This document shows positions 473 through 53,913 of a stretch of 58,678 nt of DNA, piece by piece. The notes beneath the pieces are model-generated. The model ran no database searches. It was not told the DNA's origin and saw only the letters and a program-made list of their open reading frames with translations. Positions within the stretch are counted from its first letter, which is position 1; each line of letters opens with the position of its first letter. Both the position numbers and the translations under genes were made by a program. The stretch is from Christensenella sp. UBA6406 (GTDB lineage: Bacteria > Bacillota > Clostridia > Christensenellales > UBA1242), in assembly GCA_002438625.1 (NCBI GenBank), contig DJPS01000016.1, forward strand, positions 1 to 58,678, written 5' to 3'.

Positions 473-1132
473 TTACTTAGCATTTGCTTGTGTTCCAGCA
501 GTTGCCCAAACTTTATCACTTGCTAAACCAGCAGTTAAAGCAGCACTAACATCAGTACCATAATCTTTAGTTAAGTGGTCTGCTTGAATTGCTTGCACTG
601 TAATAGTTAAAGTTACAGTTACATTTTGCCAAGAATTGTCATAATTAGCAGCTGTAAATATAATTGTTGCACCATCAGTACCATAATCTAAAATAGCTGT
701 ATGTTGCACATCTGCATTTTTAGCGATAAAACCATAGTATGTCTTATCTGCATCATTATATGTCATATTTGCCTTACCCTTAAAATAAGTATTTGCAAAA
801 ATGTCATTTATCAATGCATCAAGATTCAATCCTGCATCACTGCTTTCAGCAGCTAATTTGACGCGATAGAAAGTGTTTACATTGCTTTCCAATGTAGCTG
901 AACCTGAAACCTTGACAGAATCTCCAGGAACTATTTTACCAGTCTCAACTTGTGCAATAGCCAAATCGTTACCAGTAATTTTAATTTGACCAAAACTAAT
1001 AGATGTTTCACTACTTTCCTTGTTAGCAGTGAAATAAGCGAATGTTAGAGTTGCAGATAATGCAACTAGTAGCAAGATTACTGCTGACATAGCAACAACT
1101 AACTTGCTTTGTGATTTTTGTTTCATTTTCAT
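473..1132 (-). CDS. TasA/camelysin-like (peptidase M73-like fold) secreted protein with a SipW-dependent-type signal peptide
   Basis: The N-terminus is MKMKQKSQSKLVVAMSAVILLLVALSATLTFAYFTANKE, i.e. a basic n-region, a hydrophobic core and the AYF(T/S) motif typical of SipW-cognate signals. A PGDS motif is present and the terminal strand is ...TLTITVQAIQADHL, as in TasA/camelysin. The SD AAGGAG lies upstream of ATG 1132. Confidence 0.7.
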   Translation of the reverse strand: MKMKQKSQSKLVVAMSAVILLLVALSATLTFAYFTANKESSETSISFGQIKITGNDLAIAQVETGKIVPGDSVKVSGSATLESNVNTFYRVKLAAESSDAGLNLDALINDIFANTYFKGKANMTYNDADKTYYGFIAKNADVQHTAILDYGTDGATIIFTAANYDNSWQNVTVTLTITVQAIQADHLTKDYGTDVSAALTAGLASDKVWATAGTQANAK

Positions 1133-1940
1133 TTTTATTTTATCTCCTTATAAAATTGTTTGATAGTTAAGGTTAAGCATTTACCCTAACTACTAAAATG
1201 TGATTATTTGGTTTTATGCAAATATAAAGATAAAGCAAGTTGCAAAATATTTAAGCGGACTTAAAATTTAGAGCAAATTGATTTTAACTATTTTTGCATT
1301 TTGATTGTTTTATACATTTTAGTTTTTACTATAAAATTTTCATTTTAATTTTGACATAATAATTTCCTTCCCCTTTCTTAAAGCAAATCACAATGCCATA
1401 GCATTCAAACATTTTACAATAAAGACAAAACTTTTCTTTTAAACTTTTTGCATTATATTACATTTACAATTACGCATAACAATTTATACCGCCAGTTAAA
1501 AAGCAATTAAATAGACTTTATTAAATTACAAATTTAAACTTGCCAATTATCTCCTAGGCTGACTTTTAGCAAACTTAAAAATGCAATTAATTTATGTACT
1601 TAGCAAACTCTTATTGCGTGCTGAAAAATCTTAAAGAACTAGACTTTTGGGAATTTAATAAGTAGGTAAACTAAATTAAACTAGCACACCAAACACACCT
1701 GCAAAAATATTTAATTGTTTTTAATAAGCGACATAAGACCATTAAGCATAAGCGTAAAAATAATAGTCCTGCAAAAATTTTAAGCGATAAATTTTGAGAT
1801 TAATGTTTATTGTTTTTCGCTAATTGCAAAGTTATCCACCCGCCAAATTTAAAGCACTTACCACGGCACTTTAAAGGGCAATTTACATCTAAACATATTT
1901 CTATATTTAGACCTAAGGGCTAACTAAGATGTCACTATCA

Positions 1941-1968
1941 ATTATACCCCCCCCCGCCTAAAAGTCAA
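1941..1968 (-). promoter_or_regulatory. Near-consensus sigma-A type promoter whose spacer contains a G9 homopolymer
   Basis: On the minus strand: TTGACT (1968..1963), a 16-nt spacer TTTAGGC+G9, then TATAAT (1946..1941). A T8 run (A8 on the + strand, 1977..1984) sits just upstream of -35 like an UP element. It points toward the TasA-like gene about 800 nt downstream. Confidence 0.55.
1947..1955 (-). repeat. Homopolymeric G9 (C9 on the + strand) tract
   Basis: Direct reading gives attata-CCCCCCCCC-gccta. It has the same flank (TAGGC-G9 on the minus strand) as the tract at 47230..47238. Confidence 0.95.
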
Positions 1969-2172
1969 GCAAATGCAAAAAAAACACAAAATTTTTTAAA
2001 ATTTTCTTAAAAAACCCCTTTTTTGCCTCCATTTTTGAACAAAACACCCACCGTTTGTCCAATAATTTTTACCCCTTAAAAGCCCCCATTTTTAGCAATT
2101 ATCCCCAAAACAGCACCAAAACTTATAAAACACTCCCCCAAACTTTGCCCAAAATACCACCACAACACCACA

Positions 2173-2215
2173 CAAAAAAGGCAAAGTGAAGATTTTAATC
2201 ACTTTACCTTTTTCT
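2173..2215 (-). terminator. Intrinsic terminator hairpin, copy A of a 43-nt direct repeat
   Basis: On the minus strand: GGTAAAGTGA-loop-TCACTTTGCC followed by T6. It abuts the TAG stop (2216..2214) of the Toprim-like gene. It is 42/43 identical to 4318..4360. Confidence 0.65.
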
Positions 2216-2972
2216 ATAAATTATATTTTGATTTATGTGTTGTTACTTGGTTATAAAATGTTGTTGGATTATATTCAACCAAATATAATATGAAAGTATT
2301 TATAACATAAATCCAGCCATTTGAGTTTAAAAGGCTTAATTGTTTATCAAACAAATCAACTTGTTTTGCGTTATAAATAAAGTCTTTGGGTGGCAATTCA
2401 AATTTGCCATTTAAAATATAATGTAATTTTAATAAATGGTGATATGCCAAACTTACAAATAAGGCATAACTATGGTGTTCCACACAAGTATAATTTGAAA
2501 TATTGCCCACAATTTCCTTATAATTCTTTGCATCTTCTTTTGTTATTATTACATCTTTAAATTCATTATTTGGCAATTTATTAAAATGCCTATAAGACTG
2601 CATCATAGGATAATTTATATATATTTTTCCATTTTCAGTTGACTCATTAAAATATAAAGCCAACTTCCTTATAAGGTCAAAATGCGGGAAATCTTGTTGT
2701 GGTTCAAAATCAAAAACCAAAATAATATCGCTAAAATTTTGGGATAATATTTCCTTTTTATCACTATCTTTTTCTATTGATTTTAAAAAAAGTTGAATAT
2801 CAAAATCATCCTTAATTTCCCCATTTTTAGCGATTAAATTTGCTAGATTATGCAAGTTTGTTTTATAGGAAAAAATTTCATAATTTTTTAAGTCTTGACA
2901 AATTGAAAACAATCTATTTATAAATTTTACTTCATCATTTTCACCTTCTACGATAAATAAAATTTTACCCAT
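2214..2972 (-). CDS. Toprim-like protein of the RloB / AbiLii / DUF4435 (AriB) class
   Basis: The N-terminal motif is KILFIVEGENDEVKF, a Toprim catalytic-Glu strand (compare the RloB EGEKTE motif). An acidic strand ILVFDFEPQQD follows, then IYINYPMMQSY. ATG 2972 has GGAG 6 nt upstream, whereas the track start at 2975 is a TTG. The gene overlaps the ATPase stop by 8 nt, consistent with translational coupling. Confidence 0.55.
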   Translation of the reverse strand: MGKILFIVEGENDEVKFINRLFSICQDLKNYEIFSYKTNLHNLANLIAKNGEIKDDFDIQLFLKSIEKDSDKKEILSQNFSDIILVFDFEPQQDFPHFDLIRKLALYFNESTENGKIYINYPMMQSYRHFNKLPNNEFKDVIITKEDAKNYKEIVGNISNYTCVEHHSYALFVSLAYHHLLKLHYILNGKFELPPKDFIYNAKQVDLFDKQLSLLNSNGWIYVINTFILYLVEYNPTTFYNQVTTHKSKYNL

Positions 2973-4095
2973 CAAATTCTCCGCTTCTTAATAATTTTTC
3001 TAGGTTATGTGCTTCCCTTAATTCTCTTGCAGTTCTATCAATAAACGAATCTATTTTTTTATTATCAATAATAAAGTAGCAATCTGGTCGTAAAACATTG
3101 TTGCTTGCAATATAAGTGTTATGAGAAGTTAATAAAACTTGAATATTTTTCATTTGTTTAAACATTTCAACAACTTTTTTAGATAGTTCAAAGTGATAAA
3201 AAGCATCAAATTCATCAATAAATAAAAGACTTACATTATTTAATTGTTGATACCAATAAAATAATATTGTCATTGCTATTGTACCAGAAGAATTGACTAA
3301 TGCGAAATCTAATGCCTTATCACCTTTATCATTTACCATAACAAGCGTTTTTTGCGGTAATATGCCTGATGATATTGCAACATCTAATTTAACATTTAAT
3401 TTTGCATATGTGTTTAAAAATTCTTCCAATTCTTTAACTTTATTATTTTCAATTATCCACGCAATAATTTGTTCTGCACCATTTGAAATTCCAATATAAG
3501 CGTTTTCTTGTAATGACCTAAAATAAAGCATTCTGCTAGCGAAATCGCAAATAAATTTAATTATAGAATCTTGCTTATGAGAACCGTAAGCAAGCATATA
3601 TTTTATAAATGAAATGTCAAAATGATAATTATCATAATTAAACGAATCAAAGTCAATTTTATCAACATTTAGGCTTATAAAAGATTTTTTGCTTAAATCA
3701 CAACAAAATATTTCTTGATTTGCAACAGTTAATTTTTCGTAAATTATAGTTTTTGGGTCTTTTTTTCTATACTCGTAAACTATTACAACATTGTTATATA
3801 TAAACTCGTAAGTAAAAGTAGCAAATTTTTTTGAAGAATTAAAATTTAAAAAACTTCTTTTATCTAGTTGCCTTATATTCACATTATTAGCTGTTAAAAC
3901 TGAAACAATATCAAATAGAGCAAATGCAAGATTACTTTTTCCGCTTCCATTTTTTCCAAAAATAATAGCATTTTTAATTATACCTTTATCATTAATTGCA
4001 TCTTTGTTAAAATCGTAATCGTGTGATTTTGTTAAATCTAATGTTATTTTATTTTTAAATGATTTATAATTTTCAACACTAAATTTTGTTAGCAT
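2965..4095 (-). CDS. ABC-type (AAA_21/AAA_15-like, OLD/RecF-like) ATPase, partner of the Toprim-like gene
   Basis: Motifs present: Walker A GKNGSGKSN, a signature-like SSGT, Walker B/D-loop LLFIDEFDAFYH, and H-loop LLTSHN. The likely start is ATG 4095 (MLTKFSVENYKSFKN) with GGAGGG 6 nt upstream. The track start at 4152 is a TTG lying inside the predicted promoter. Confidence 0.75.
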   Translation of the reverse strand: MLTKFSVENYKSFKNKITLDLTKSHDYDFNKDAINDKGIIKNAIIFGKNGSGKSNLAFALFDIVSVLTANNVNIRQLDKRSFLNFNSSKKFATFTYEFIYNNVVIVYEYRKKDPKTIIYEKLTVANQEIFCCDLSKKSFISLNVDKIDFDSFNYDNYHFDISFIKYMLAYGSHKQDSIIKFICDFASRMLYFRSLQENAYIGISNGAEQIIAWIIENNKVKELEEFLNTYAKLNVKLDVAISSGILPQKTLVMVNDKGDKALDFALVNSSGTIAMTILFYWYQQLNNVSLLFIDEFDAFYHFELSKKVVEMFKQMKNIQVLLTSHNTYIASNNVLRPDCYFIIDNKKIDSFIDRTARELREAHNLEKLLRSGEFDG

Positions 4096-4123
4096 TGCTT
4101 TCCCTCCAAATGTATACACTTTT

Positions 4124-4152
4124 AGTTTACACTCCTTTGCTTTAAAAGTCAA
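4124..4152 (-). promoter_or_regulatory. Candidate promoter of the two-gene cassette
   Basis: On the minus strand: TTGACT (4152..4147), a 17-nt spacer, then TAAACT (4129..4124), about 25 nt upstream of ATG 4095. Confidence 0.4.
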
Positions 4153-4317
4153 TTAATTTTTAAATCTTTCCGTAATTTTTTTACGGATACATTTAATTAT
4201 AATCTTTTGATTGAAATTTTATGCTTTAATTGCTATAAATAAATATTAATATTTTATCTATCACATTATAACATACAAAATTATTAAATTAAAGTTTTCC
4301 TGCCAACCGAAACATAG

Positions 4318-4360
4318 CAAAAAAGGCAAAGTGAAGATTTTAATCACTTTGCCTTTTTCT
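4318..4360 (-). terminator. Intrinsic terminator of the 3956-aa gene, copy B of the 43-nt direct repeat
   Basis: On the minus strand: a perfect 10-bp stem GGCAAAGTGA/TCACTTTGCC followed by T6, about 65 nt downstream of the stop at 4424. Confidence 0.7.
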
Positions 4361-4423: not shown

Positions 4424-7400
4424 TTAAATATATTCTTCAATGTTTCGTTCTGAGCCGACTTGATTGCTTTTATCTAATGAGCCATAACCGCAAACCTTAA
4501 TTAATTTACTGAAATTTTGATAGTAATTGTTAATAATTTGCGTAAAACTTACGCTCTTAGTTATTGCACCAATTAAAATGCCATATTGTGTGTTTGCATC
4601 TGCTTCAAGTTCTGTTGCGTTGCTTAACCTTATAAAGTTATTTTCAATATGCATATTTTGTGCTTTTACATAGCCGACTATGCCTCCAACCCTTATAGGT
4701 TCTTTATTTGCCCCTACAAAGTTTGCTTTTATTGCACCATCAAAGATAGAATTAACAATTTTTGAACCTTCTGCATAGCCAACGAAACCGCCAACATATG
4801 CATAATTTTCATTTTGACTTATTCTTAAAGTTACATTCTTAACATTAACTTTATTGATTGTTGACACTGTTGAAATGCCTGCAATAGAACCTAAATAAGT
4901 TTTGCCTTCGCTTTGTTCTGTTTGGTTTAGAGTTATTGTTAAGCCATTAAATGTTACATTTTTAATTGCTGAACTATCCACTCTACCAAAGAAACCTAGT
5001 GAAATGTCGTTATCCTTGCCTGCTGTTTCGCTTAGCACAACATTTCTTATTGTGTAGCCTTTGCCATCAAAAATGCCTTTAAATGGAATTTCAAATGTAC
5101 CTAAACTTTGAACTGGATTACCATTTATTGTTGTTAAATTATTGAAATCAATATTTGTGCCCAATTCAAAAATTCTACCATCGCCACCATTTGGAATAGT
5201 GCCATTTCTAATTTGAATAGCAATATTTACAAGTTGAGATGCTTTTGTTATTATGTGCGTTCTTATGCCATCAAAACCCGTGTTTGTATCTGGTTCTTCT
5301 ATTGAAACTTTTTCCACCCATGAATGTGTTGGGTAAGATGCTGGCAAGTTATCCAAATTCCAATTTGCCGTAACTAACCAAGGATTTGTTGAACCGCTCC
5401 AATTTGAAGAAGTTTGATAAAATGATAATTGATTAAAGTTATCACTTGAAGAATTTATGCTCTTATAAACCTTTGTTAGTTTCATTGATACGCTAGAATC
5501 GTAAGCCAATAAGTTCGCACTATTTAGTGTGCCTGAATATAACTTAGTCCACGAATTGATTATGTTTGTGGTTGTTGTGCCTTTTGCAATTAGCCCGTAA
5601 ACTTTTCCGCTTACGCCATTTGCAATGCTAGCATTTAATATATTTGCATAGCAATTTGTTATATTCACACCTTGTGAAGATGTTGCACCAATAAATGCTG
5701 AAACATTTGCATTTGCATTTATATTAATCTTATCAACTGATGTGTAGCAACTTTGGACTGAACTTGCTCCGCTTGTTGTGCCGAACAAGTAACCGCCCAT
5801 AGCACCAACAGCAATCGTATTTGGATTTGCCACTGTAATTGTTGCCTTAGACACTGAAACCTTGCTTAAAATTGAGTTTGTTGCAAAGCCCACAAGACCG
5901 ACATAAATTGCATCATCATCTTCGCTTACATTAAATTCAACGCCATTAAAGGCAATATTTTTAAGTGTCATTCCGCTTGCATAATTTATAAAGCCTGTAT
6001 AGATATCGTTGTTGTTTTTAAACTTAACATTAGAAATCGTGTAGGTATTCCCGTCAAAAGTGCCCCTAAATGCATTCATACTTGAACCTAGACCTGCAAA
6101 GTTTGCACCTGCAAAATCAATGTTTCCAGCAAGCATAAATGTTATGCCTTTTGCACCATTTGCAATGTATCCATAATTGATTAAAGTTGATAAAATTTGT
6201 AAATCTTTAACTGAACTAATTAAATAGCATTCATAAGAAACGCTTGTAAGTTTCTTAAATATATTCAACTTGTTCAAATCAACTTTTGTAACTTCTATAT
6301 CTCTTAAAACTGGCGTTTTGCTATCTCCATTTTCAAATTCAAAGTTTGAGATTAAATGCATTAAGAAGATTTGTGTTTTCATTCCTTTAATTTTTACGCC
6401 GTTTCTTGTCCAATCTTCATAAATTGGAGTGCCATACGTTTGATTAACTGCTTTTTTACCATCGCTAAGCATTTGCAATAATTCATAGCCATTTCCATAT
6501 GTGTTTACGCCTTTGCTGTAACCATCTGGCACTGCCATTTGCGTGTTTGCGTTGTTGCTTAGAACGGCAACATCGTTAATTACAATATTTGTTGCTATAT
6601 CGTTTGCTTTTTCTATGTTTGGCGTTGCAGTTTTATAGACAACTTTATTGAATGAATTTGCAAATAATGAATTATTATCATTTGCTTTTAGTGGAGCGAC
6701 ATCGTTTATTGTGCCAACCAAGCCGACAAGTCCGCCAATTTGCGTTTGTTCGTATTCTTCCAATTTAGTATAATCGTAACTTACAAGTGAAACCGCATTA
6801 TTGATTTCTAGCACATTTGTTGCTGATAGCAATTTAACCACATTTGTATTCACTTCATCATCCACATAAACATTATCAAATTTTTGCGTATAAATGAAAT
6901 TGTTTGCAAGAGAGCCAACGATTCCGCCAATATACTTATAATAATATGTTGATATTGTTGTGCCTGGATCATAAGTTGCTGTATCACTATATTTAATATA
7001 AATTGTTCCGCTTGCATAAACATTTGAAATTACACCGCTTAAACTGCGACCAACAATTCCGCCAGCGACAAGAGCGTATTCATCTTTAATATTGACTTTT
7101 GAATATGAATTAGATATATTACCGCCATTATTAAAGCCAACCAATCCGCCTATTGCTGTTGCCTTGCCATCTATTCTATTTGAATCAGTTATTCCAACTC
7201 TATAATAATCATTATTTGCTATTGTGTTGAAATATCCAACCGCTTCGCCCGTATCAATAACGCTTTGGACATCATCTTCATATTGAATAAATGATTTATC
7301 TATTTTTCCTCTATTTTCAGATGCTAAGCCACCAATCATACTTATACCTTTAATGAACATATCATCTGTTACATACACTTTTGCATTGCTAACGGCACTT

Positions 7401-10400
7401 GCTTTATCTATAAGCCCGAAACCGCCACCAACCATTTCGCCAATGACTGTAACGCCGTTTGTGATGCTTACACTTTGGACTTTACTGCCCACAAGCACGC
7501 CAACCACGCCACCAGCATATGACACCTTATCAGCAACGGCACTTTCGTATAGATATGTGTTTGTTGCCCTATAACCTGCATTGACTGAAAGTTCTGTGTG
7601 AATGTCCTTGATTACACTATTTTCACTATATCCCGCAAGTCCGCCTGCCATATTCTTTCCGTGCACAATCGCTTCACCAGATAGAGAAATATTATAAACT
7701 TTGCTGTTATTAATTGTCCCCGCAACTGTTCCAACCTTTTGGCATGCACTACCAAACATTTCGTCCGCTTTTATTGTTACATTTTTAAATACTGCATTAT
7801 CAAGCGTTCTAAATAAGCCCATATTGCTTAAATCACTTGCTTCATCATTAGAATTTAAATAACTATTTCTTAAATTTGCAATTTGCATTGCATTTCCTTC
7901 AAAATAGCCATTAAAGTTAATCTTATAACTTTCTGCCATTATTACATCTTCGCTGAAATCAATGTCGCAAGCCATTATATAATATTTATCATTTCCGCTT
8001 GATGAAGCAGGTTCTAGCACATACGTGTTGAAGTCGCTTGCACTATAAATTACATAAGGATGTTCAACACTTCCATAATTTGCACCAATTAATGATGTAT
8101 AAATATATTCAGGTTGACCGCCCGTTGTGGTTACCGTAACCAAATCTACATAACCACGAGAAATAATGTTAGCAGATGTGATTGTCGGTTTTCCATAAAT
8201 GAATTTTTGTCCTTTATATGCACTTGTTGTGCTTGCTTTTGTTGTTGGAATAAACCAAACACCATTTACACTATTTTCATTTACATTGCCATTAACTTCT
8301 GTATCAAATGCAAAACTTTCAAATGTATCAATGAAAGCAAACTCTTCTGCCGTTTCAATCATTGTTGCAGGCTGACTATCTTGATATGTGTATTTACCCA
8401 TTAAGAAATATGCACTTATAATGTCTCCTGTGTTATTTACATTGTTATAATCATCTAACCCAATATATGGCATATCTTGCACACTGTTTTCTCTTACAAT
8501 GCTTGTGCTATATGTGTTTTTAATGCTTCCACTGTTTGTGAACACAAAACCCGCTGTTGGAGCATTAGAGTTGATTCTTATATTAGAATAACAGTTGCTA
8601 ATTTCGCCCGCATTTTCATAAACGAAACCGCCCACACGGCTTACCGCATTTAATTCTATTTCAACATTATCTCTATTTGCAAAATTATATTTTCCTTCTA
8701 CAAATGAAAGAGCAATTCTTCCGCTGTTAGAGCCAACCAAACCGCCGACTTTGCTATATTCGCTTGCACTTGTATAACTGTAAAGGATTGCTTTGCTGTA
8801 ACAACTTGAAACAACACCAGAGTTTTGCCCCGTGATTGCACCAACAACCCCGTAATTGTGGAATTTAACATTTTCTTCTATTCTGCTATTTGCGATTGTT
8901 CCATTGTTTTCGCCAACCAAAATACCCATTGTGCTTTCTACAAAGTCGCTATCAACCGTGGTTAATGTTATCCTTACTTTTAAGCCTTTTGCACTTGCAG
9001 GGATTGCATTACCAGACACCGTTGTGGTTGTTTCCGCTAAATTTGATGAAATAATTGTATTTTGATAATCATATGGAGAAATAACTTCCTTACCATTTAT
9101 AACTCTTTGAACGATTGCAGAAGAAACTTCTTCGCCAGCATATGAAACACTGCAATTATAGATGCTTCCATTGTTTACAGCGGTTAGCAAACCAAATATA
9201 ACTTGACTATAACCTTCCGCATCAATCTCCAAAGTTGAATTTCCAACAATTAGATGAATATTTTCAAATATTGCGCCTTCATAAATTTCTGTAAATAAAC
9301 CTATTTGCTTAGAACCTGACCTATTTTCAAGTTCTGTTTCATCTTTGTAACTATTGATAGTTATTGTATGATTATTACCATTAAAAGATTTAATTTGCGT
9401 TGAAATTGGCTTAAAGTTATCTAAAACTAAATCAGTCATTAATATATAACTTATGTCCGCTTCCATTGCATAAAATTCATTTTCATTATAGATAGGTACG
9501 GCATTTGTTCTATCTGTATTTAGATAAAAATTTACCGTAAACACCCTATCTAAAATTTGATAAACTTTTCCGTTTGCAATATATTTATCCGTTAAAAGTG
9601 CAGATAAATTCTTATCATCCCTATAAATATTCTCTATACCTGATTTTTCATAAACCCATTCTTTTGTAACTCTATCAAAACTAAACTTTAACTTTGCTGA
9701 GATGCGTTTTTGATTTGAATCCTTATTGTCATAATTCACCCCTGTAACATAAAGGTCTTTTGATGTTATACTCTTAGAATTTACTTCAAAATATGCATTT
9801 TTATAATATTTACCTATTGCAACATCGTTGCCCGTGTTGCTTGCCTTGTAAGCATACCAAGTGTTGAAATCTGATGTGCTTAACTTTTCTAAATCTGCAA
9901 TAATTTTCGCCCTTATTGCATCGTTTGTTTCATCATAGAAGAATTTAGATTTTTCAAAACTTAACTTTAATGCATAAGTTCCTCCAAAAACTTCTCTCAT
10001 AACATTGTTTGAAACATTTTCAAAACCAATGTCCTTAATTACATAATCTACAACTATAAATTCTAGCGTATCAGTTGCAGTTTTTGTTAATTTGCCAATT
10101 CTCTTATTTATTGTTGCCTTAATTTCCACAACATCACCAACACTTGCAAGAGAACTAACATTTAGTTTATAAGCATTTGTTCCCTTAACTTTCGTAACGC
10201 TTGCATATGGATAATTAACGCCATCTTTTGTTACGTCAAAACTTACATCGCCATCGTATTCAAAGAATGACACACCAAGTTCGCTCTCCGTTCCAAATGG
10301 CATATAAATTTCATTATTTTGTTTGCTTGTTTCGCCATTTAAACTTAGGTTGACTTTTGGCAAATAAGCACAATCTAACACTAGATCATAAGAATAAACT

Positions 10401-13400
10401 TCTATTTTTTCTCCATTAGTTTCCTTATAAGCCGTGATTTTAACAGTATAAGATTTTTTAGTTGTTTCACTAGCAACAAGCATAGACACATAATATTCAC
10501 CATTAACGCCACGCACAAGTTGCCCGTTTCTATAATACGCATTCACTAATGTGATACCGTTGACAAGATAGTTTCTATCTGCAAGGCGTTCATATGGATA
10601 AGAATTTATTGATTTTGAATCATTTTTAACTAATTGCTCGAAAGACATTTCACTATTTGTAACTTCAATATAATCAAAATCTGCATAAATAGGGAAAACA
10701 TTGATTGACAACAACGCATTATAACCAGGAATTATGCTACTGCTAGGTTCTTCGGTTGGATTATAACCATTGTCCCCCATTACATCCCTTTCAGCGTATG
10801 TGTAAACCTTTGTTTCAGTCCTTTGAATGTTTTCTGGCATAAATGTCAAATAATATGTTAATTTAACTGATGGCTCAGTTTTTGCTGATAAAATGATTGT
10901 AAATCTTGTTTCTTCTTTAATAAATTTACTTTCATCGTTTAACTTTAATGTTAAGTTATAGTCTTTCGTTTGATTTTGTTCATCCATAGCACTTAAATTT
11001 GAAACTAAATCAAATTTAGCACTTGATAAATGACCGCCAGTATAACTTGAAACAAGCCTATTTTGAGCATCTAATATTGTAACTAAAACATCATCATTAG
11101 GGTCATCAGTGTGAAGCCTTGCCTTTATATCAATTTCCGTGCCCGCTGAAATTGTTGTGTTTTCTTCGCTAAGGAATTCAAAGTCAGTTGCTCCCAAAAT
11201 TACGCCAATGTTAAATTGCTTAGTAAATCTATCATCTTCAAAATAATCACTTAAATAAACTTTTTCGCCACTTTCAATAACTATATAAGGTCTTGCTGTA
11301 ACTCTTGCAAGTTTGCCCCCCATTCCTTCAAGTGCATTTACAATGTGCGTTAAATAGTAATCAATAGTAACAGCATTTTCGCCCGCACTTTCGCTTGATT
11401 CAAATGTGAAATATTGCGTGTAATCACCTAAATCGCACTCAACTTTATATTCTACATAAAGGTCTGTTGCAATGCTTGCACTTACGCCATTAACTTTTGC
11501 AGTTACATATGGCCTAATTTGATAGTTATCGCCCTTCTTTATCCTTAAAGTTGTCAATTTTTCAGCACCTGACAAAACATTGTTGCCTTGATACATATCA
11601 AAATCTAAAACTGGATAAGTGGCATAAATATTTATAGATGCAAATACTTTTGCACTTAATTTAGAAGTTACAGTTATTCTTGCACTTCCTGTACCTACAA
11701 CATTAAAACTTCCATCACTTAAAACTTTTACAACATCTTCGTTTGCACTTGTAACTTTAAGCCTATTAACATAACCAGATGTAGGCAATACATTTGCACT
11801 AATTAAATCGCTAATCTTATAAATATTGTAACTTAATAAAGCAAGTTTATCATTTACATCGTTTGATGTGTAATAGAATAGAAGCATAGACTCGTTGCCC
11901 ACTTTATAAGCATTAATCACTATTTCAATGCTCTTAGGTGGTTGTTGAACTAGTGCAAAACCATCTATTTCCAAATAAGGCAATAAACCTGTTTTATTCC
12001 AAATTGAACCGCTAAAACTATTGAAATTGTCAGTTGGAGAACCTTTTGCATCAAATATAATTGGTGCGTTTTCACCAAACTTAGCATATGAACTTGTAAT
12101 TAAATAATCATTTCCATTTACAATAAAAGTTGCATTATTTTTATTTTGCATATAAGAGTTATCTAGGTTTACAAATCTTGCATAACCTATCATTCCACTT
12201 AGTGAACCTTGCGCAATAGCAACAAAATTTGTGTAGGCATATCTTATAACCATATCCACAGATGCAGAACCATAAGCATAACCTATAAGCCCACCAACAT
12301 TGCTAACACCAACAACATCACCAGCATATTCATTTACTGAACTTCCTGCACCTACAACTCTATCTTTATATGTTGCACTATAAACTTTGCTAATGCTTCC
12401 GCCAACTGCATAGCCTATAAGCCCACCAACATTAGTGTTTCCTTTGACATTTACGGCATCATCACCAAAACTCTTTCCATCTTCATAAGATTGGACATAA
12501 GAGTTTTCCAAATGCCCCGCATTCATTCCTATTAGTCCGCCAATATTCTTCGTTCCCCTAACAAGAGATGAAGAGAATGCATTATATATTTTTCCATCAT
12601 TACCATTTATGCCCACCAAACCACCAACATTGTTTAATCCATAAACAACATTGTCTGTAGACACATTCATAATGCTTCCATTGTTTTGCCCAACAAGTCC
12701 GCCAATTATTGCATTTTCGCTAAGCACTGCATTATTGTAATAGATTCCATTATATTCATTATTAATATTTGCTGTTACATCTATTCCCTCGTCTTCAAAC
12801 AAAGAACTAAATATAACATCATTTCCATTCTTTTCGTTGTAAATGCTTTTAATATAACCATCGTTTTGTCCAACCATTCCACCGACATAATAAGTTGAAT
12901 GATATGTATCTTCGGCTGACATTCCAGGAATTTGGAACTTAATCTTGTCCACAATAATTATATCTCCACCACTTACTGCGTTTGTTTTGCTTGTATACAA
13001 TATATCTGCACTATTTTGACCTAATAAGCCACCAACATAAGCAGTGTTTTTACCAACATAGTATTTGAACTCGCCCAAAACAACATTAACATTAATTACA
13101 CCAAACTTGCCTGCAACTTCTGCATTTTCTCTATCTGATTTATATAAATTATCACAAGAGAACTTGCCTGCAACCGCACCAACATATACCTTGTAATCTT
13201 TGTTGTTGCTAAGCACATTTATTCCACTACAATCCACTTTTAAAACTGAAACCTGCAAAGTTAAATCGCAAATTGTTCCAATTCTTGGCACTGTATCGTA
13301 AACTTTTTTACCAAATACATTTTCACTAGATGAAATTTGTGCAAATAAACCAAAATAATCTTCATCTTCATTTTCTTTTATATCATTTGAAATTATTGAT

Positions 13401-16294
13401 TTATTTATATTTAAATTTAAAATTGAACTTCTTAAACTAAATGTTTCAACCCTTTCATTTACAAGTTGTTCAAACGTAAATAAACCGCTTAAATAGCCAG
13501 TAAATGCCAATTTTTTGCTTCTTCCAATAGGTTCAAAATTGCTAACATTAGAAAAATCTATATTGTTAGTTAATATATAATAATAACTCATTGTCAAAGC
13601 ATCTGTTCCTATTGACATAAGGTCGCTAGCAGTTGAAATATGAAAAGCGGTTTCCCTTGTTAAACCATCTTGCACTGTAACAAACACTTCTACATAATTT
13701 GTTGCATCGCTTGCATTTGTAAAACTGTCTTCACTTGCTATTCTAAGTTTTGCCTTACCCGCACGAAGAGGCGTAACAACACCATTTGCATCAACTTTAA
13801 ACACAGGGCTATCCACAGATTCTCCAGTTGTTGTGCTTCTATATTGATATCTAACCTTAGTGTTTAATGCATCTGTTGGATATGCATTTGCTTCCACCTT
13901 AAATGTATTGCTTTCGTTATCTAGCCCTTTCCTGCTATCAAAATAAATGTTTCCATTTACAACATTTGTTAAGACTATTGAATTTACAAGTTTTGCACTG
14001 CTAACTTCTATCATACAACTTTCGCTATATGTTCTGCCAAACTCCTTAACTGTTGCTGTTACAATAAGCGTGTCCATATCACCTTCAAGTGGTCCAGCAG
14101 TTACAATCGTGCTAAGCCCTTTAACAGCACTTAAACTTCCACTAACAAAATCATTGCTAGTCCTATCCGTTATTGTCCATTCCACATCCTTTGCATAAGT
14201 CGCATTTTGCGGATAAACATTTGCAACAAGCCCAATTTGACTAAGTGTTGATTTATTATAAAAACCAACCGTTGAATAATCATATGCTATTGCATTTAAC
14301 TTATTTAATGTTATTGAAGAAATTGCCCTATATGCCTCTATTGTAATTGATGCAGTAAATTGAATTTCATTTCCATTTCCGCCTTGCTCATAACCCGTTA
14401 AATTTACAACTAATTGCGTAACACCTTCCCTTAATGGTCTAATTACCCAATTATCACAAGTTGCAATGCTTCCATTTGCAACAACAAACTCACTGCCAAT
14501 TATTGTCGCATTTTCATTCACTATTTTCTTTAAATCAACTTCACTATTGATTTGCAAATATATCTTCTTTAAAGTTTTTCCATCACTATAGTATTCTTTT
14601 TGCCCTATTGCACTATTCGTATACGGACTATCCACTTCTAACGCAAAATCCGTAAGCGGAACATAAGATATAATTCTAGTTTCAGTGCCTCCGCCGTTTC
14701 TGTAATAAATACGCAAAATTTCATCTGTTACATCATTTGCCTTTATAGTGTATGATGTGCTAGACTGTCTTGTTAGTGTCAACTTATCACTAACTTCACC
14801 AAGTTCAAATCCTTCCACATTTGCATTAACAGGCACCAAATTCAACTCTAAATCTGCACTTTCGCCCTTTTCAATGTAAATTACACTTGGCACATTTATA
14901 GATGAAATTCCCGTTACAACCTTAACATTTAACTTGCACTCTAAATTAAGTTCATATTCCTTAGCCTTCAAACTCTCCACATTAAATTCATATGTTGCTT
15001 GCATTGCATTATTTGCTCTAACATAAAGAGTTTCGCCACTTTTAACTTCAAAAGTGCCATTATTTACATCAATCAATTCGCCATTTTCATTTAAAAACCT
15101 AATTGTGCCCACAGCATTTAAATCTGCATATGTAACTTTCATTACACTATCTTCCAAAAGCACACTGCTTGGACTAAGTGAAAAACGAATACTTGCACCT
15201 AAAACATTATCGTTATATCTATCGTATACAGTTAAATCTATTTCATCATCAACCTTTTTACCATTTATGTTGATTGCATTTGGGATATCTATAACATTAA
15301 AACTGATTGTAAACTTAATTGCTTCCAAATAATCTTCCGCATTTTTTAAATTTACACTGAAAACTAAATCAGTCTTTCCAAGTGCAACTGCTTGCACCCT
15401 TATAATGCTTCCGCCCTTAACATCTGCTTGAATTATTTTATTGTTAAAAGAGATTAATTTTAAATCTATTAAATCACTAGAATAATCACTACACTCCAAA
15501 ATCAAGTCTTCATAAGATAAATTTTCAATAGTTTTAACCAATTCTAAACTGCTTAACTTAATTTCACCATTTTGAATTACATTTTTTCCGCTTTCACTAG
15601 ATAAAGACAATGATTCACTTTCAATAGGTTTAACAATGTTCACGACCTTAACATCATAATTATCTGGATTATTTTTACCATAAACTTTTATGCTAAACTT
15701 CCCTGCCACTGTTGCATTTGTTGCATCTATTAATCCTGTTGTTTCATTTATCGTAACCCCAGCAAACTGTTGCACCATTTCAAAACGTAAATCACTTTTT
15801 GCACTGTGAATAGGAGATAAATTTAATTCACTATCTGCTTTAATAACATATTTACCACCAAAAGGAATGTAAATTTCATTTTCACTTACAAATTTAACAC
15901 TTTCTACGCTTTGATAAACATTTACCTTAATTTCCCTATAATCACTGCTATCAATTAAATTATGTATGCTAATCTTCGCACTTCCAGGCATTAAACCTGT
16001 TACCATAAATTTAATTACCGCACTATTTTCGCTAATCTTTTTAATTGCTACAATGCTTTCATTTTGAACTGATGTCCACACACCATCATCAGCATTTGCA
16101 TCCTGTTTATTTACCGAAAAAATTACAGAGTCATCAATCACTTCCTCACTGCTTGTCGTTTGCCCAAGTATGATTTCAATTTCTTCCACACTTGCACTAA
16201 ATTTAAAGTTGCTACCACCGCCAGCACAGCCCGCAAATGCAAACACCACAAACGCAAACATTATACTTAGCATTGATAAATATTTTTTCTTCAT
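4424..16294 (-). CDS. Giant (3956 aa) surface lipoprotein with N-terminal Ig-like (Big_2-like) domains followed by multiple GLUG-motif beta-helix modules
   Basis: A single uninterrupted ORF. The signal peptide carries the lipobox FAG-C (MKKKYLSMLSIMFAFVVFAFAGC). Many (V/I)GGL(V/I)G repeats are spaced about 20-25 aa apart (for example NVGGLVGINGNDGKIYNAF, NIGGLIGMNAGHLENSY). Recurring cap motifs of the type ...PY.I....D(L/F).......Y.L..(D/N)IDF... are present. The SD AAGGAG precedes ATG 16294. Confidence 0.85.
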   Translation of the reverse strand: MKKKYLSMLSIMFAFVVFAFAGCAGGGSNFKFSASVEEIEIILGQTTSSEEVIDDSVIFSVNKQDANADDGVWTSVQNESIVAIKKISENSAVIKFMVTGLMPGSAKISIHNLIDSSDYREIKVNVYQSVESVKFVSENEIYIPFGGKYVIKADSELNLSPIHSAKSDLRFEMVQQFAGVTINETTGLIDATNATVAGKFSIKVYGKNNPDNYDVKVVNIVKPIESESLSLSSESGKNVIQNGEIKLSSLELVKTIENLSYEDLILECSDYSSDLIDLKLISFNNKIIQADVKGGSIIRVQAVALGKTDLVFSVNLKNAEDYLEAIKFTISFNVIDIPNAININGKKVDDEIDLTVYDRYNDNVLGASIRFSLSPSSVLLEDSVMKVTYADLNAVGTIRFLNENGELIDVNNGTFEVKSGETLYVRANNAMQATYEFNVESLKAKEYELNLECKLNVKVVTGISSINVPSVIYIEKGESADLELNLVPVNANVEGFELGEVSDKLTLTRQSSTSYTIKANDVTDEILRIYYRNGGGTETRIISYVPLTDFALEVDSPYTNSAIGQKEYYSDGKTLKKIYLQINSEVDLKKIVNENATIIGSEFVVANGSIATCDNWVIRPLREGVTQLVVNLTGYEQGGNGNEIQFTASITIEAYRAISSITLNKLNAIAYDYSTVGFYNKSTLSQIGLVANVYPQNATYAKDVEWTITDRTSNDFVSGSLSAVKGLSTIVTAGPLEGDMDTLIVTATVKEFGRTYSESCMIEVSSAKLVNSIVLTNVVNGNIYFDSRKGLDNESNTFKVEANAYPTDALNTKVRYQYRSTTTGESVDSPVFKVDANGVVTPLRAGKAKLRIASEDSFTNASDATNYVEVFVTVQDGLTRETAFHISTASDLMSIGTDALTMSYYYILTNNIDFSNVSNFEPIGRSKKLAFTGYLSGLFTFEQLVNERVETFSLRSSILNLNINKSIISNDIKENEDEDYFGLFAQISSSENVFGKKVYDTVPRIGTICDLTLQVSVLKVDCSGINVLSNNKDYKVYVGAVAGKFSCDNLYKSDRENAEVAGKFGVINVNVVLGEFKYYVGKNTAYVGGLLGQNSADILYTSKTNAVSGGDIIIVDKIKFQIPGMSAEDTYHSTYYVGGMVGQNDGYIKSIYNEKNGNDVIFSSLFEDEGIDVTANINNEYNGIYYNNAVLSENAIIGGLVGQNNGSIMNVSTDNVVYGLNNVGGLVGINGNDGKIYNAFSSSLVRGTKNIGGLIGMNAGHLENSYVQSYEDGKSFGDDAVNVKGNTNVGGLIGYAVGGSISKVYSATYKDRVVGAGSSVNEYAGDVVGVSNVGGLIGYAYGSASVDMVIRYAYTNFVAIAQGSLSGMIGYARFVNLDNSYMQNKNNATFIVNGNDYLITSSYAKFGENAPIIFDAKGSPTDNFNSFSGSIWNKTGLLPYLEIDGFALVQQPPKSIEIVINAYKVGNESMLLFYYTSNDVNDKLALLSYNIYKISDLISANVLPTSGYVNRLKVTSANEDVVKVLSDGSFNVVGTGSARITVTSKLSAKVFASINIYATYPVLDFDMYQGNNVLSGAEKLTTLRIKKGDNYQIRPYVTAKVNGVSASIATDLYVEYKVECDLGDYTQYFTFESSESAGENAVTIDYYLTHIVNALEGMGGKLARVTARPYIVIESGEKVYLSDYFEDDRFTKQFNIGVILGATDFEFLSEENTTISAGTEIDIKARLHTDDPNDDVLVTILDAQNRLVSSYTGGHLSSAKFDLVSNLSAMDEQNQTKDYNLTLKLNDESKFIKEETRFTIILSAKTEPSVKLTYYLTFMPENIQRTETKVYTYAERDVMGDNGYNPTEEPSSSIIPGYNALLSINVFPIYADFDYIEVTNSEMSFEQLVKNDSKSINSYPYERLADRNYLVNGITLVNAYYRNGQLVRGVNGEYYVSMLVASETTKKSYTVKITAYKETNGEKIEVYSYDLVLDCAYLPKVNLSLNGETSKQNNEIYMPFGTESELGVSFFEYDGDVSFDVTKDGVNYPYASVTKVKGTNAYKLNVSSLASVGDVVEIKATINKRIGKLTKTATDTLEFIVVDYVIKDIGFENVSNNVMREVFGGTYALKLSFEKSKFFYDETNDAIRAKIIADLEKLSTSDFNTWYAYKASNTGNDVAIGKYYKNAYFEVNSKSITSKDLYVTGVNYDNKDSNQKRISAKLKFSFDRVTKEWVYEKSGIENIYRDDKNLSALLTDKYIANGKVYQILDRVFTVNFYLNTDRTNAVPIYNENEFYAMEADISYILMTDLVLDNFKPISTQIKSFNGNNHTITINSYKDETELENRSGSKQIGLFTEIYEGAIFENIHLIVGNSTLEIDAEGYSQVIFGLLTAVNNGSIYNCSVSYAGEEVSSAIVQRVINGKEVISPYDYQNTIISSNLAETTTTVSGNAIPASAKGLKVRITLTTVDSDFVESTMGILVGENNGTIANSRIEENVKFHNYGVVGAITGQNSGVVSSCYSKAILYSYTSASEYSKVGGLVGSNSGRIALSFVEGKYNFANRDNVEIELNAVSRVGGFVYENAGEISNCYSNIRINSNAPTAGFVFTNSGSIKNTYSTSIVRENSVQDMPYIGLDDYNNVNNTGDIISAYFLMGKYTYQDSQPATMIETAEEFAFIDTFESFAFDTEVNGNVNENSVNGVWFIPTTKASTTSAYKGQKFIYGKPTITSANIISRGYVDLVTVTTTGGQPEYIYTSLIGANYGSVEHPYVIYSASDFNTYVLEPASSSGNDKYYIMACDIDFSEDVIMAESYKINFNGYFEGNAMQIANLRNSYLNSNDEASDLSNMGLFRTLDNAVFKNVTIKADEMFGSACQKVGTVAGTINNSKVYNISLSGEAIVHGKNMAGGLAGYSENSVIKDIHTELSVNAGYRATNTYLYESAVADKVSYAGGVVGVLVGSKVQSVSITNGVTVIGEMVGGGFGLIDKASAVSNAKVYVTDDMFIKGISMIGGLASENRGKIDKSFIQYEDDVQSVIDTGEAVGYFNTIANNDYYRVGITDSNRIDGKATAIGGLVGFNNGGNISNSYSKVNIKDEYALVAGGIVGRSLSGVISNVYASGTIYIKYSDTATYDPGTTISTYYYKYIGGIVGSLANNFIYTQKFDNVYVDDEVNTNVVKLLSATNVLEINNAVSLVSYDYTKLEEYEQTQIGGLVGLVGTINDVAPLKANDNNSLFANSFNKVVYKTATPNIEKANDIATNIVINDVAVLSNNANTQMAVPDGYSKGVNTYGNGYELLQMLSDGKKAVNQTYGTPIYEDWTRNGVKIKGMKTQIFLMHLISNFEFENGDSKTPVLRDIEVTKVDLNKLNIFKKLTSVSYECYLISSVKDLQILSTLINYGYIANGAKGITFMLAGNIDFAGANFAGLGSSMNAFRGTFDGNTYTISNVKFKNNNDIYTGFINYASGMTLKNIAFNGVEFNVSEDDDAIYVGLVGFATNSILSKVSVSKATITVANPNTIAVGAMGGYLFGTTSGASSVQSCYTSVDKININANANVSAFIGATSSQGVNITNCYANILNASIANGVSGKVYGLIAKGTTTTNIINSWTKLYSGTLNSANLLAYDSSVSMKLTKVYKSINSSSDNFNQLSFYQTSSNWSGSTNPWLVTANWNLDNLPASYPTHSWVEKVSIEEPDTNTGFDGIRTHIITKASQLVNIAIQIRNGTIPNGGDGRIFELGTNIDFNNLTTINGNPVQSLGTFEIPFKGIFDGKGYTIRNVVLSETAGKDNDISLGFFGRVDSSAIKNVTFNGLTITLNQTEQSEGKTYLGSIAGISTVSTINKVNVKNVTLRISQNENYAYVGGFVGYAEGSKIVNSIFDGAIKANFVGANKEPIRVGGIVGYVKAQNMHIENNFIRLSNATELEADANTQYGILIGAITKSVSFTQIINNYYQNFSKLIKVCGYGSLDKSNQVGSERNIEEYI

Positions 16295-16742: not shown

Positions 16743-19700
16743 TTAATTTTGTAAATAACTAGGTTCACCTTGTGCACCAGCACCGCCAGATTGCTCTTCG
16801 CCACCGACATCAACATCATACTCTCCAACAGTTCCATCATCTCCATTAACTTTATTACCATTGTAACCGCCGTTACCAGAACGCCCACTATTTTTGCCTG
16901 CATGATAACCTTCCCAAAGCAAAACTCCAAAAAACTCCGCTTTGAAATGACTTCCATCTCCGCCTTTTGTTCCTTTTCCGCCATCTCCACCAGGGGCACA
17001 TTGTAAATCTATCGTAGAACCTGATGCTTTATATGAAGATGATGAAGGATTTAAACTTGTTGCCCCATAAGAGTTACCAATAAATGCATAACCACCATTT
17101 CCGCCATTTCCTCCATCGTTACCCTTTGTAACATCGCTACATGAGTGTACACCTTTACCCCAATCACCATGCGATAAAGGGCATTGTATGTGATTTGTTC
17201 TGCCATAGCAACAACTTGTTGCATCATCTTTACCATCGCTACCATTTCCGCCACGACCTGCGGCAGTACCGTGATCGCCATCACTAACAAAGTCAAATGA
17301 GCCACTGTTTGTGTTTCCTGATAAATTACAATTTGCATTTATGCCAACAATTCCGCCAGCAATTACATTACCGCCATTTCCGCCCTTCATACCTTTTTTA
17401 GTTTCTGGGTCAAAACCTTTGGCATTATCGCCATTTCCAGCATGTCCAGTAACAACTTTACCAGAATTTGAACAAGAACTTATATTCACATTGTTTGCAT
17501 AAGCAACCAAACCACCAACTGGACTAGCATTAAAGCCATTGTTCCCATCAGTATAATCAAAATTTGTTAAAATTTTAATCGTTTCATTCTTTTGCAATGT
17601 AAATGTTTTAAATGAAACAGTCGCTTGTACATTTGATGCACTTACTTTATCTACACTATTATTCATTAAAACAGTTTCGTAAAAATTTGCATCCAAAGCA
17701 CTATCACCTGTAACTGTGCAACCATTGTTTTTAGAACTTGTTAAATTTCCATCTGACATAGCACCGCAAATTCCGCCAGCAAGACCCAAGTTTCTTGCAT
17801 AAATTGCATCTCCACTTGATGTTGCCTTAGCAATCATATCGTACGCTGTTACACTTAAATTAGAAGTTTCGCAACTTGTTATATTTGTGCTTTCTGCATA
17901 ACCAACAAGTCCACCAACAACATTTGCTGTAAGTTTTGTAGTTGTTAAGAAAGATACTTTTACTTTTGATATTGTGGACTTAGAAGCAATAGCACATAAA
18001 CCACCTGAATAAGATAAATATTTACTCATATCCGCAAACATTACATTTGTAGATGCACTGCTTGAAGAATAATATCTTTCATATTCTGTCATCATATTAC
18101 TTCCAGCACTTTCTAATTGTAAATCTAAATTAGTTATTGTAGCATTATCAATAACATATAAGAATCCCATCATAAGAGCAGAGTTATCTCCGTTACTTAC
18201 CTTTTTAGAATCTATTGCAATTCCTTTAAGTTTCTTATTGTTACCATCTAATGTGCCACTGAAACCAGCAGCAGATTTAGGGTTCCAAGCCTTCTTAGTT
18301 TCGCCCTTAACATCAAACCCATGTTGATTTATGTTGTATGCAAGTTTAATCTTAACACCCGCTTTATAGTCCGTATCCATTAATTTATAGAATGCACTGA
18401 AATTATTTACATATGTATAACCACCAGTTATAGTTGTTCTTATAAAACTGTCAAACCTAGGGAAATATGCATAGCCAAAGTTTTTAGTGCTATTTCTACA
18501 AACATTATTTGTATTTTTATTGGTTGCATATAGCAAATAATAAGAACTTCCCGTATTTATCGTATCTGATAAATATCTATCAAATGCAAGTGTTTTTAAT
18601 GAACTTGTAGAAGTTGCAATGCTATTTCTCGTAACTGCCTGTGGGTCAAAACTGCAATATACAAACTTAGTTTTACTATCGGCATATCCAACTACACCTG
18701 CATTTCTACTTGATAATGTTGTATCTAAACTTGTAACAGAGTTTACAAACTTAAATAAAGTATTTTCACTTCTACCAACAAATGTACCTGCATAATTTCC
18801 ACTATCTACAACTAATCCACCAAGAGTGAAGCAGTTAAAGATTGTACCATCTTCACTTGTAGATGCAATTATTCCGCTTGTCCCACTAGAAATAACTTCT
18901 ATATCTGCAATGACATTTAATATCATACCATTGTTTGTTGTAACCACACCACCAACACTTGAACCTTGCACCTTTCCAGTTGCATAAAGGTCGTGGACAA
19001 CACCATTGCTTGTATCTGCAACCATTGCACTAGAAATGCCACTTGATGATGTTGTTTTAACCGCAAAGTTGCCAACAACACCATACTTACCAATTTTGCT
19101 AAATAACGAATCGCTAACAGTAATTTGTTTATAATTACCCGCAAAAACACCATTAATTGATTTAGAACTTGTAACAGTAATATCTCTTGTTAATAGGTGA
19201 TAAGTTTTGCTACTACTTAAAATTCCGCTAGAACTTGAAACCCTAATAGGATTAAACACCGTTCCACTTTTAATAGTGATAAATTCTTTAATGTATTGAT
19301 ACATCATATCTGCACTTCTATCAAACTCATCTAAGAAATCAACATAATCCAATATATTATAGGAATCACTATTCGCAAATCTTATAGTGTTATCATCGCT
19401 TGTCAACAACTTGCTACTTTCAAACCTAGAACCAGTAACTTCATCTACCACAGTTATACCATTGTTTCCGCCCTTGTAGTTATTTACACCCGCAAGCACA
19501 TCAATGTTATATTTGTTCTTGTTTTCGTTTCCGTATTCAGGCTTAACAATGGTTGTTAAGATTGTCGTGTTTGAAATTGAATCTCTTGTGTCTCCCGCTA
19601 TACCACCAGCATAGATATGTTCAAACTTAGAACCTGTGCTGATATCTATATATCCAGAAGCAACGCAATTCTTTATTTCTAATGAACCAGAATCTTTGTA

Positions 19701-47263: not shown

Positions 47264-47629
47264 TTTCTAAACTCCTTTTCTTTATATTTTTCCTTCATTT
47301 TTTCTTGCACCATTGTAGTCTAGCCCCTAAAACTAAGCCATAATCTTAAATTAAAACTTTTCCCTTTTAAAATTTTAATCCAAAACCATAGCCACGACAC
47401 AAACGCACAATTTATATGAAGTTTTTTGATGTTATCTTCTTTATTTTACATTTTTATTTTTTCTTTGTCAATTATTTTTTATTAATTTTGTTAAAATTTG
47501 AGTTCTTTTTAAATTTAAGGGTGAGGGGAAAGAATATTGTGAACAATGTATATAAATTTTGTATAACTGTCTAGAAATTTGTGCTATTATGTGATAGAAT
47601 ATAAGAGTACAAATGAAAGGAGATTACAA

Positions 47630-53665: not shown

Positions 53666-53727
53666 AACTAAAAGCCCCCAATTCTCTTAACATTTTAATG
53701 CTTTTTATTTGAATTGTCAAGCAAAAA

Positions 53728-53859: not shown

Positions 53860-53861
53860 AT

Positions 53862-53895: not shown

Positions 53896-53913
53896 CATTT
53901 TTTTCATCTATTT

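Follow-up and report, generated by a model that had tools for sequence, protein, structure and literature searches.

A PDC-M12-type gene pair, ABC ATPase and RloB-like protein, framed by duplicated terminator hairpins in a Christensenella genome

The DNA analyzed here, a window of 58,678 nucleotides from Christensenella sp. UBA6406 (contig DJPS01000016.1 of assembly GCA_002438625.1), contains a two-gene cassette that stands between two nearly identical terminator hairpins (Table 1). The upstream gene, A, encodes an ATP-binding cassette (ABC) ATPase, and the downstream gene, B, a small protein related to RloB and Toprim proteins. Together they belong to PDC-M12, a family of candidate phage defence systems. 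We consider it probable that the cassette is a PDC-M12 defence module of a widespread and horizontally mobile kind that has become resident here, in which the ATPase would control an RloB-like nuclease of the Toprim fold, and that it was acquired via the hairpin. An earlier note, made from the letters of the same DNA, had proposed a defence cassette of the AbiL/RloAB/PARIS class that entered at a terminator. Contigs and loci used for comparison carry labels of the form L067 and are named where they have to be told apart.

Table 1. Features of the cassette and its borders, in window coordinates (GC, guanine plus cytosine; RBS, ribosome-binding site)
Feature	Positions	Strand	Description
Gene A	2965..4095	minus	376 amino acids; ABC ATPase (Rad50/SMC-head-like); PADLOC PDC-M12A
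Gene B	2214..2972	minus	252 amino acids; RloB-like Toprim-type putative nuclease effector; PADLOC PDC-M12B
A/B overlap ATGGGTAA	2965..2972	minus	8 nucleotides; stop of A and start of B, read from the sequence
Cassette leader/promoter region	4096..4317	minus	222 nucleotides, 22.5% GC; RBS and two candidate promoters
Hairpin copy A	2173..2215		predicted terminator immediately next to B's stop codon; −20 kcal/mol (minus strand), −12.5 kcal/mol (plus strand)
Hairpin copy B	4318..4360		predicted terminator of the giant gene (stop 4424), upstream of the cassette; in all strain contigs

The full open reading frames (ORFs) of the pair span 2214..2975 and 2965..4152 on the minus strand, and the likely starts are the ATG codons at 4095 for A and at 2972 for B. 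Each start has its own RBS: GGAGGG (4107..4102) is separated from the ATG of A by a six-nucleotide spacer, and GGAG lies ahead of the ATG of B. The two genes and their short overlap, as the earlier note had placed them, are borne out by the ORF list and by the sequence. The same 8-nucleotide overlap is found in homologues on an E. coli plasmid (L051), in a Vibrio phage (L052) and in a metagenome (L008). Since it is repeated in this way, translation of A and B is probably coupled. The motifs named in that note are likewise present in the translations, with GKNGSGKSN, IDEFD and TSHN in A and VFDFE and NYPMMQSY in B, and they map to invariant or near-invariant columns of the two family alignments. 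B additionally contains FIVEGENDE.

For A, the AAA_21 comparison that the earlier note had suggested gives a clear Pfam match (E = 1e-19). Among PADLOC models, PDC-M12A (PDLC04426) is matched at 6e-112, with residues 1–375 aligned to model positions 1–368 of 369. Further matches are to the AbiLi model PDLC02335 (2.7e-41), to the 'AriA' model PDLC02980 (4.4e-21, at the same coordinates as the generic AAA_21 match) and to the HEC-01A models (4e-8). Across 42 homologues of A the residues G47, G52 and K53 of Walker A, D294 and E295 of Walker B, and H325 of the H-loop are invariant. An AlphaFold (AF2) model of A has a mean predicted local distance difference test score (pLDDT) of 90.1. When this model was compared with the PDB by Foldseek, the top matches were PtuA of Septu/retron complexes, Rad50 and SMC heads (E about 1e-11 to 1e-9), and AriA was absent from the 50 best structural neighbours. 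A profile of A does reach the AriA structure 8ux9, at E 0.002 and over the C-terminal ATPase motifs only. A therefore represents a compact ABC ATPase of the Rad50/SMC-head type that lacks a long coiled coil.

This fold, nearest to Rad50 and SMC heads, together with weak NCBIfam matches of A to RadB, Rad50 and SbcC, would also be compatible with a housekeeping pair for DNA repair or chromosome maintenance, in which a Rad50/SbcC-like ATPase works with a nuclease partner. We regard such a role as very improbable. The NCBIfam matches score 10–20 bits, far under the curated cut-offs of 172–700 bits, and neither a coiled coil nor a zinc hook was found within the 376 amino acids of A. B has no relation to Mre11/SbcD, the cassette is atypical in GC content, and the family occurs patchily, on plasmids, in phages and at transposon-adjacent sites.

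The identity of B emerges largely from its relatives. Five PDC-M12B models of PADLOC match the window protein, among them PDLC04430 (the best, at 5.7e-40) and PDLC04431 (1.2e-39) over nearly its full length. The AbiLii model is matched only at positions 30–75 of 170, with E = 0.024 and 13.3 bits, and HEC-01B is not matched among the PADLOC models. A profile of the B family, compared with 1.84 billion cluster representatives, retrieved 1,794 proteins at E ≤ 1e-3. The family is large: B has about 1,800 representatives at 50% identity, and A has more than 3,600 clusters at 90% identity. None of 113 close relatives of B has a precomputed Pfam domain. When relatives were compared with Pfam RloB (PF13707), 20 of 53 close relatives and 41 of 79 divergent representatives matched it, the best of the latter at 6.7e-8, and these matches are colinear from model position 1. 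Pfam Toprim is matched weakly by 9 of the 79 representatives and OLD-like_TOPRIM by 2, and among the families listed DUF4435, the domain of AriB, is matched neither by B nor by its 53 and 79 relatives. Judged by these alignments, homology of B to RloB is likely, short of formal PF13707 membership.

Comparison with known structures gave a mixed picture. Profiles of the B family, run against PDB sequences, returned only 1vr8 (E 0.9) and 1t6t (E 0.04). The latter, an Aquifex structure deposited as 'putative protein' that we take to be a Toprim-domain structure, is aligned across the FDxD motif. The conserved columns of the family are E9 (at least 90% conserved to invariant), G10, the invariant D88, and N120, Y121 and P122. 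In the AF2 model of B (pLDDT 92.7), strands alternate with helices. E9 lies just past strand 1, and D88 closes strand 3 and is followed by E90, which is E or D across the family. In the model, E9, D88 and E90 are thus placed as they would be in a Toprim metal site, and E9, D88 and E/D90 are the probable catalytic residues. Foldseek comparison of the model with the PDB gave weak matches to topoisomerase II Toprim regions (E 0.05–0.25), and AriB, OLD and GajA structures are absent from its 50 best PDB fold matches, none of which is significant. In BFVD the sole significant match is A0A8S5LTA7, a myovirus 'RloB-like protein' (E 3e-4, probability 1.00), with 261 aligned columns and modest template-modelling (TM) scores of 0.38/0.43. 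We conclude that B is a divergent RloB-like protein of Toprim type, not AriB, and at best a remote cousin of AbiLii.

A PADLOC comparison, also suggested in the earlier note, recognizes the pair as candidate system PDC-M12 with both proteins full length, and the pair is a further member of this already catalogued candidate defence family. PADLOC includes 145 PDC systems, untested 'phage defence candidates' that were derived from genes lying within BREX, DISARM and type I restriction–modification (RM) loci (10.1101/2024.01.29.577857). As in the members from E. coli plasmids and Vibrio phages, the two genes here are adjacent, lie on the same strand and overlap. The copy in the window is distinguished by being chromosomal, in a low-GC bacterium, framed by a duplicated terminator and outside any RM, BREX or DISARM locus, and it is 26–39% identical to the proteobacterial members.

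With respect to systems that have been characterized, the class named in the earlier note, AbiL/RloAB/PARIS, was right in kind though drawn too broadly, in that an ABC ATPase is paired with an RloB/Toprim-related partner. Its PARIS component did not hold, and the link to AbiLii is confined to the marginal match given above. The nearest relation is RloB-like rather than PARIS, because DUF4435 is missing, no AriB, OLD or GajA structure is recovered, the AbiLii match is marginal and AriA falls outside the 50 best neighbours of A. RloA/RloB, known from type I RM loci of Campylobacter, likewise joins an ATPase to a small Toprim-related protein, and about half of the divergent B relatives match RloB; in contrast to that system, the RloB matches here are sub-threshold and no hsd genes lie near the window pair. 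AbiL of the Lactococcus plasmid pND861 is also a two-gene system of an ATPase and a predicted Toprim/OLD-like effector, and A matches AbiLi, whereas B matches AbiLii over a fragment of the model only. It is a validated abortive-infection system that has been grouped with PARIS as ATPase plus Toprim (PMC13064643). When A was compared by tblastn with 72,556 plasmids, no record from Lactococcus reached E ≤ 1e-5.

PARIS shares with the pair the logic of an ABC ATPase sensor and a Toprim nuclease effector, as well as carriage by mobile elements. Its ATPase AriA sequesters the Toprim nuclease AriB and frees it on binding the trigger Ocr, whereupon AriB cleaves tRNA-Lys; AriB is a DUF4435 protein (PMC11464382), whereas B is not, and A has 376 amino acids compared with 464 in AriA. 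HEC-01 is likewise composed of an ABC ATPase and a separate Toprim-like protein, and A matches HEC-01A weakly; B, in contrast, has no match to HEC-01B, and HEC-01 showed no defence when tested. Although the window pair by itself contributes little new biology, the second protein of PDC-M12, which has no Pfam domain of its own, can now be tied to RloB and Toprim.

Homologous pairs are found in diverse mobile contexts, and A directly precedes B in every locus examined, among them metagenome contigs, E. coli plasmids, Vibrio inoviruses and IMG/VR contigs. At some metagenome loci the pair adjoins a serine recombinase, an rve transposase and a TIR protein; at others it adjoins a tyrosine integrase, or a transposase together with a methyltransferase and a UvrD/PD-(D/E)XK gene. 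On mobilizable plasmids of the Rop/ColE1 type, 4.0–4.4 kb in size, nothing but the pair is carried apart from replication and Rop functions. Hosts of these plasmids are E. coli, E. albertii, E. marmotae and Raoultella (for example NZ_CP101918.1, L051, with the pair at 1412..3260). Filamentous phages of Vibrio cyclitrophicus carry the pair as well (for example PQ189355.1, L052), and PADLOC scores among these plasmid and phage members go up to 6e-176 and 8e-120. B occurs in 14 viral contigs of IMG/VR, and a homologue of A stands immediately ahead of it in all 12 that include upstream DNA. This distribution fits a mobile defence or addiction module.

By analogy with characterized ATPase–Toprim systems, the pair could work as follows. 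B would be an RloB-like, metal-dependent nuclease of the Toprim fold, made by coupled translation with A, and in the uninfected cell an oligomer of A would keep it inactive. During infection, A may sense a phage-derived cue and, in an ATP-dependent manner, free or activate B. The active nuclease would then cut host or phage nucleic acid (tRNA in the case of PARIS), and the infection would be aborted. On plasmids the same design could serve as an addiction module, with B as the toxin and A as the antitoxin. In the lineage of the window, the pair would have entered the chromosome at or through the hairpin, long enough ago for it to have become fixed in all sampled strains.

Several findings weigh against this interpretation. 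The earlier note's assignment of a Toprim-like second protein stands for the family, which is distantly related to RloB and Toprim through the Pfam and BFVD matches above, but not for the window protein taken alone, which matches neither RloB nor any other Pfam or NCBIfam family. Every RloB match among its relatives remains under the 31.5-bit gathering score. Foldseek comparison of the B model with the PDB gave nothing significant, the best match (E 6.5e-3) being to an unrelated fold. Because B has no similarity to AriB or DUF4435, the PARIS mechanism transfers to the pair by analogy only. Our literature search found no paper that mentions PDC-M12, an untested candidate. HEC-01, an Hma-embedded candidate of ATPase plus TOPRIM type, did not confer defence when assayed by Payne et al. 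(10.1101/2024.01.29.577857), and two other PDCs tested in their native hosts were also negative for defence (PMC12409345). Among the scanned ORFs, the window copy has no neighbouring defence or mobility genes. Finally, in L067 (ENA ERZ28614778, about 95% identity) B is split into pieces of 41 and 177 amino acids (L067 1624..2495; approximately window 2837..2857). At least 121 nucleotides of unrelated AT-rich DNA and a scaffold gap of ten N lie at the split. Either the putative toxin is truly disrupted in this strain, or the split arose as an artefact of scaffolding.

An interrupted B is also what would be expected of a dispensable or costly toxin. It thereby bears on the alternative that the pair is primarily a toxin–antitoxin (TA) or addiction module, with B as toxin and A as antitoxin, which stabilizes mobile elements and has no dedicated anti-phage role; the chromosomal copy would then be a stranded remnant. 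Its place as the only cargo of the small Escherichia and Raoultella plasmids is in keeping with such a module. So is the behaviour of AAA ATPase/TOPRIM pairs as TA systems: AAA ATPase antitoxins neutralize TOPRIM_OLD toxins when toxicity is assayed, and the ATPase node concerned is also connected to an RloB node (PMC10440598). TA behaviour and defence by abortive infection are nevertheless compatible, PARIS being both. Moreover, the family is found embedded in RM, BREX or DISARM loci and in phages, as is typical of defence cargo, and in the remaining strain lineages sampled neither A nor B is interrupted and both are conserved. On balance we judge a purely addictive role unlikely. The tiny E. 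coli plasmids and the Vibrio filamentous phages offer an easy experimental entry for distinguishing defence from addiction.

The base composition of the cassette sets it apart from its surroundings. A has a GC content of 24.7% (14% at third codon positions) and B of 24.4% (24.5% for the pair), the lowest among 21 genes measured. The window as a whole has 32.3% and the adjacent giant genes 33.3–33.7%, which leaves the cassette 8 points under its neighbours and confirms by measurement the AT-richness that the earlier note had judged by eye. The promoter it proposed, TTGACT-17-TAAACT, is present at 4152..4124 with 9 of 12 consensus positions matched. However, such matches are no more numerous than in shuffled sequence (26 found, 25.6 expected), and this one is therefore no evidence by itself. 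An extended −10 element, TGTTATAAT, at 4273..4265 is an equally good candidate for the promoter of the cassette. DNA similarity to homologous cassettes is restricted to window positions 4118..2215, so the leader and the hairpins are lineage-specific.

The hairpins that border the cassette are, as the earlier note had described, 43-nucleotide direct repeats. They are identical at 42 of 43 positions, and the window holds two copies only; a 33-nucleotide core occurs exactly twice in the 58.7 kb, against 0.00 occurrences expected by chance. Each copy forms a stem of about 16 bp with a 9-nucleotide loop, and on the minus strand, which is the transcribed one, a run of six U comes next. The folding energy of copy B is −23.6 kcal/mol, and the z scores of copies A and B are −6.3 and −7.2. 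Each repeat is thus predicted to be a complete intrinsic terminator, in agreement with that note. A simple terminator scanner missed both hairpins because its loop limit is 8 nucleotides. Copy B lies 63 nucleotides past the stop codon of the 3956-amino-acid giant gene, which it would serve, as that note had said. The single difference between the copies is a G-to-A change in copy A; the minus strand still forms a G-U pair at this position, and the plus strand has an A-C mismatch. Scanning the window for Rfam families and tRNAs returned nothing. Integron attC-like hairpins were considered and dropped: the stems are perfect and have A and T tracts, there are two copies only, and no further cassettes are present.

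The borders of the repeats coincide exactly with those of the cassette, which runs from its own leader to B's stop codon. Recombination at or through the terminator is the more likely, if unproven, origin of the cassette. The remark in the earlier note that neither integrase nor transposase accompanies the cassette agrees with the domain scan, which detected no recombinase in the cassette or in 17 other window ORFs (19 in all, of at least 100 amino acids; the two giant ORFs were not covered). Around homologous cassettes elsewhere no flanking repeats were found, and the hairpin is therefore taken to lie outside the mobile unit.

At least nine contigs carry the locus; they come from several ENA, Logan and NCBI samples, among them the metagenome-assembled genome (MAG) GCA_002405695.1. 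The order giant gene, hairpin, A, B, hairpin is constant across all sampled contigs, and the three known variants of the giant protein, collected by exact look-up and as a 90% cluster, all occur alongside the cassette. In a lineage of about 95% identity (L067 and L068) about five positions distinguish one hairpin from the other. Several of the changes are wobble-compatible and fall within the 5′ arm; the 3′ arm, TCACTTTGCCTTTTT, is constant everywhere. Since both hairpins carry independent substitutions in the lineages at about 95% identity, the duplication predates the divergence of the strains, and the event is old.

A single-hairpin empty site was not found. The hairpin pattern has 0 matches in GTDB representative genomes and in JGI metagenomes. 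The C-terminus of the giant protein, compared with GTDB representatives, gave repeat-level matches of 26–42% in Clostridia, Bacteroidales and other MAGs, those of Clostridia being the majority, and no orthologue. Homologues of the 219-amino-acid gene downstream of the cassette revealed no empty site either, the contigs stopping at a poly-G tract before the hairpin (L044) or belonging to unrelated loci (L042). Contig breaks at the hairpins, as in L005, which runs from hairpin to hairpin, and L017, which ends in one, were considered as a presence/absence polymorphism and rejected. They are no evidence of it because a 43-nucleotide repeat exceeds the assembler k-mer, which for Logan is presumably 31.

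These observations can also be read without any insertion at the hairpins. The cassette may have arrived in another way and the terminator been copied later, by local duplication or gene conversion, each transcription unit needing one; or the cassette may be ancestral and the repeat have no meaning for mobility. The presence of both hairpins in all sampled strains, with independent substitutions in the lineages at about 95% identity, would suit such a history. The same is true of the failure to find an empty site in the collections searched, of homologous cassettes that are not flanked by repeats and of the lack of a recombinase nearby among the scanned ORFs. On the other side stand the exact agreement between repeat and cassette boundaries, the 8-point deficit in GC and a second insertion at the same place. 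In L068, a separate insert of 131 nucleotides (L068 5800..5930) directly follows hairpin copy A, and it ends in a second copy of the last 11 nucleotides of the hairpin, TTGCCTTTTTT. Taking both sides together, we see a history without insertion at the hairpins as possible but doubtful.

Because L068 carries this second, independent insert with its 11-nucleotide duplicate, the data hint that the hairpin is a recurrent site of insertion or duplication. A more specific proposal, which we advance as speculation and think rather improbable, is that the terminator hairpin of the giant gene acts as a recombinase-independent capture site. Breakage, or template switching during replication, at this long palindrome flanked by A and T tracts would repeatedly admit foreign DNA and duplicate part or all of the hairpin. 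This would have happened once with the 2.1-kb cassette, duplicating 43 nucleotides, and once with the 131-nucleotide insert, duplicating 11. If this were general, intrinsic terminators could provide an entry route for defence cassettes that lack an integrase, and these would be insulated by terminators on both sides. More modestly, the duplicated terminator and the insert of the sister strain offer a small hint as to how such cassettes enter chromosomes.

The genomic surroundings place the cassette among genes of other kinds. The housekeeping genes gyrB, gyrA and secA are present at 49–58 kb (49415..58541, minus strand), and the window is for this reason taken to be chromosomal. Between secA and gyrA lies a gene for an AAA_14/DUF4143 ATPase (52346..53665, minus strand). 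A YunG-family gene at 47579..48289 (plus strand) has a GC content of 25.6% and is almost as AT-rich as the cassette. Upstream of the cassette, two tandem giant ORFs on the minus strand (4424..16294 and 16743..31886) encode surface proteins of 3956 and 5047 amino acids, with faint Glug/HL_N-beta Pfam signals only.

Downstream of the cassette, the gene for a protein of 219 amino acids (473..1132, minus strand) has an N-terminus that resembles, by eye, a signal peptide of the SipW/TasA type (..LTFAYFT..). This protein is hypervariable, with 47–54% amino acid identity between strains (L002 and L044), whereas the flanking DNA is 93–99% identical. Because the protein varies while the DNA around it is nearly identical, allele replacement or diversifying selection of this surface protein is suggested. 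About 800 nucleotides upstream of the gene lies the best promoter match of the region, TTGACT-16-TATAAT (1941..1968, minus strand; 11 of 12 positions). Its spacer holds a run of nine G, which is retained in all three strains compared and at which contig L044 breaks exactly. The element is a candidate phase-variable promoter. The spacer past hairpin copy A (1968..2172) is G/T-rich on the minus strand and variable in length among strains; in L003 it has about 110 additional nucleotides (10821..10925), which include a tandem array of a 22-nucleotide unit in 4.7 copies.

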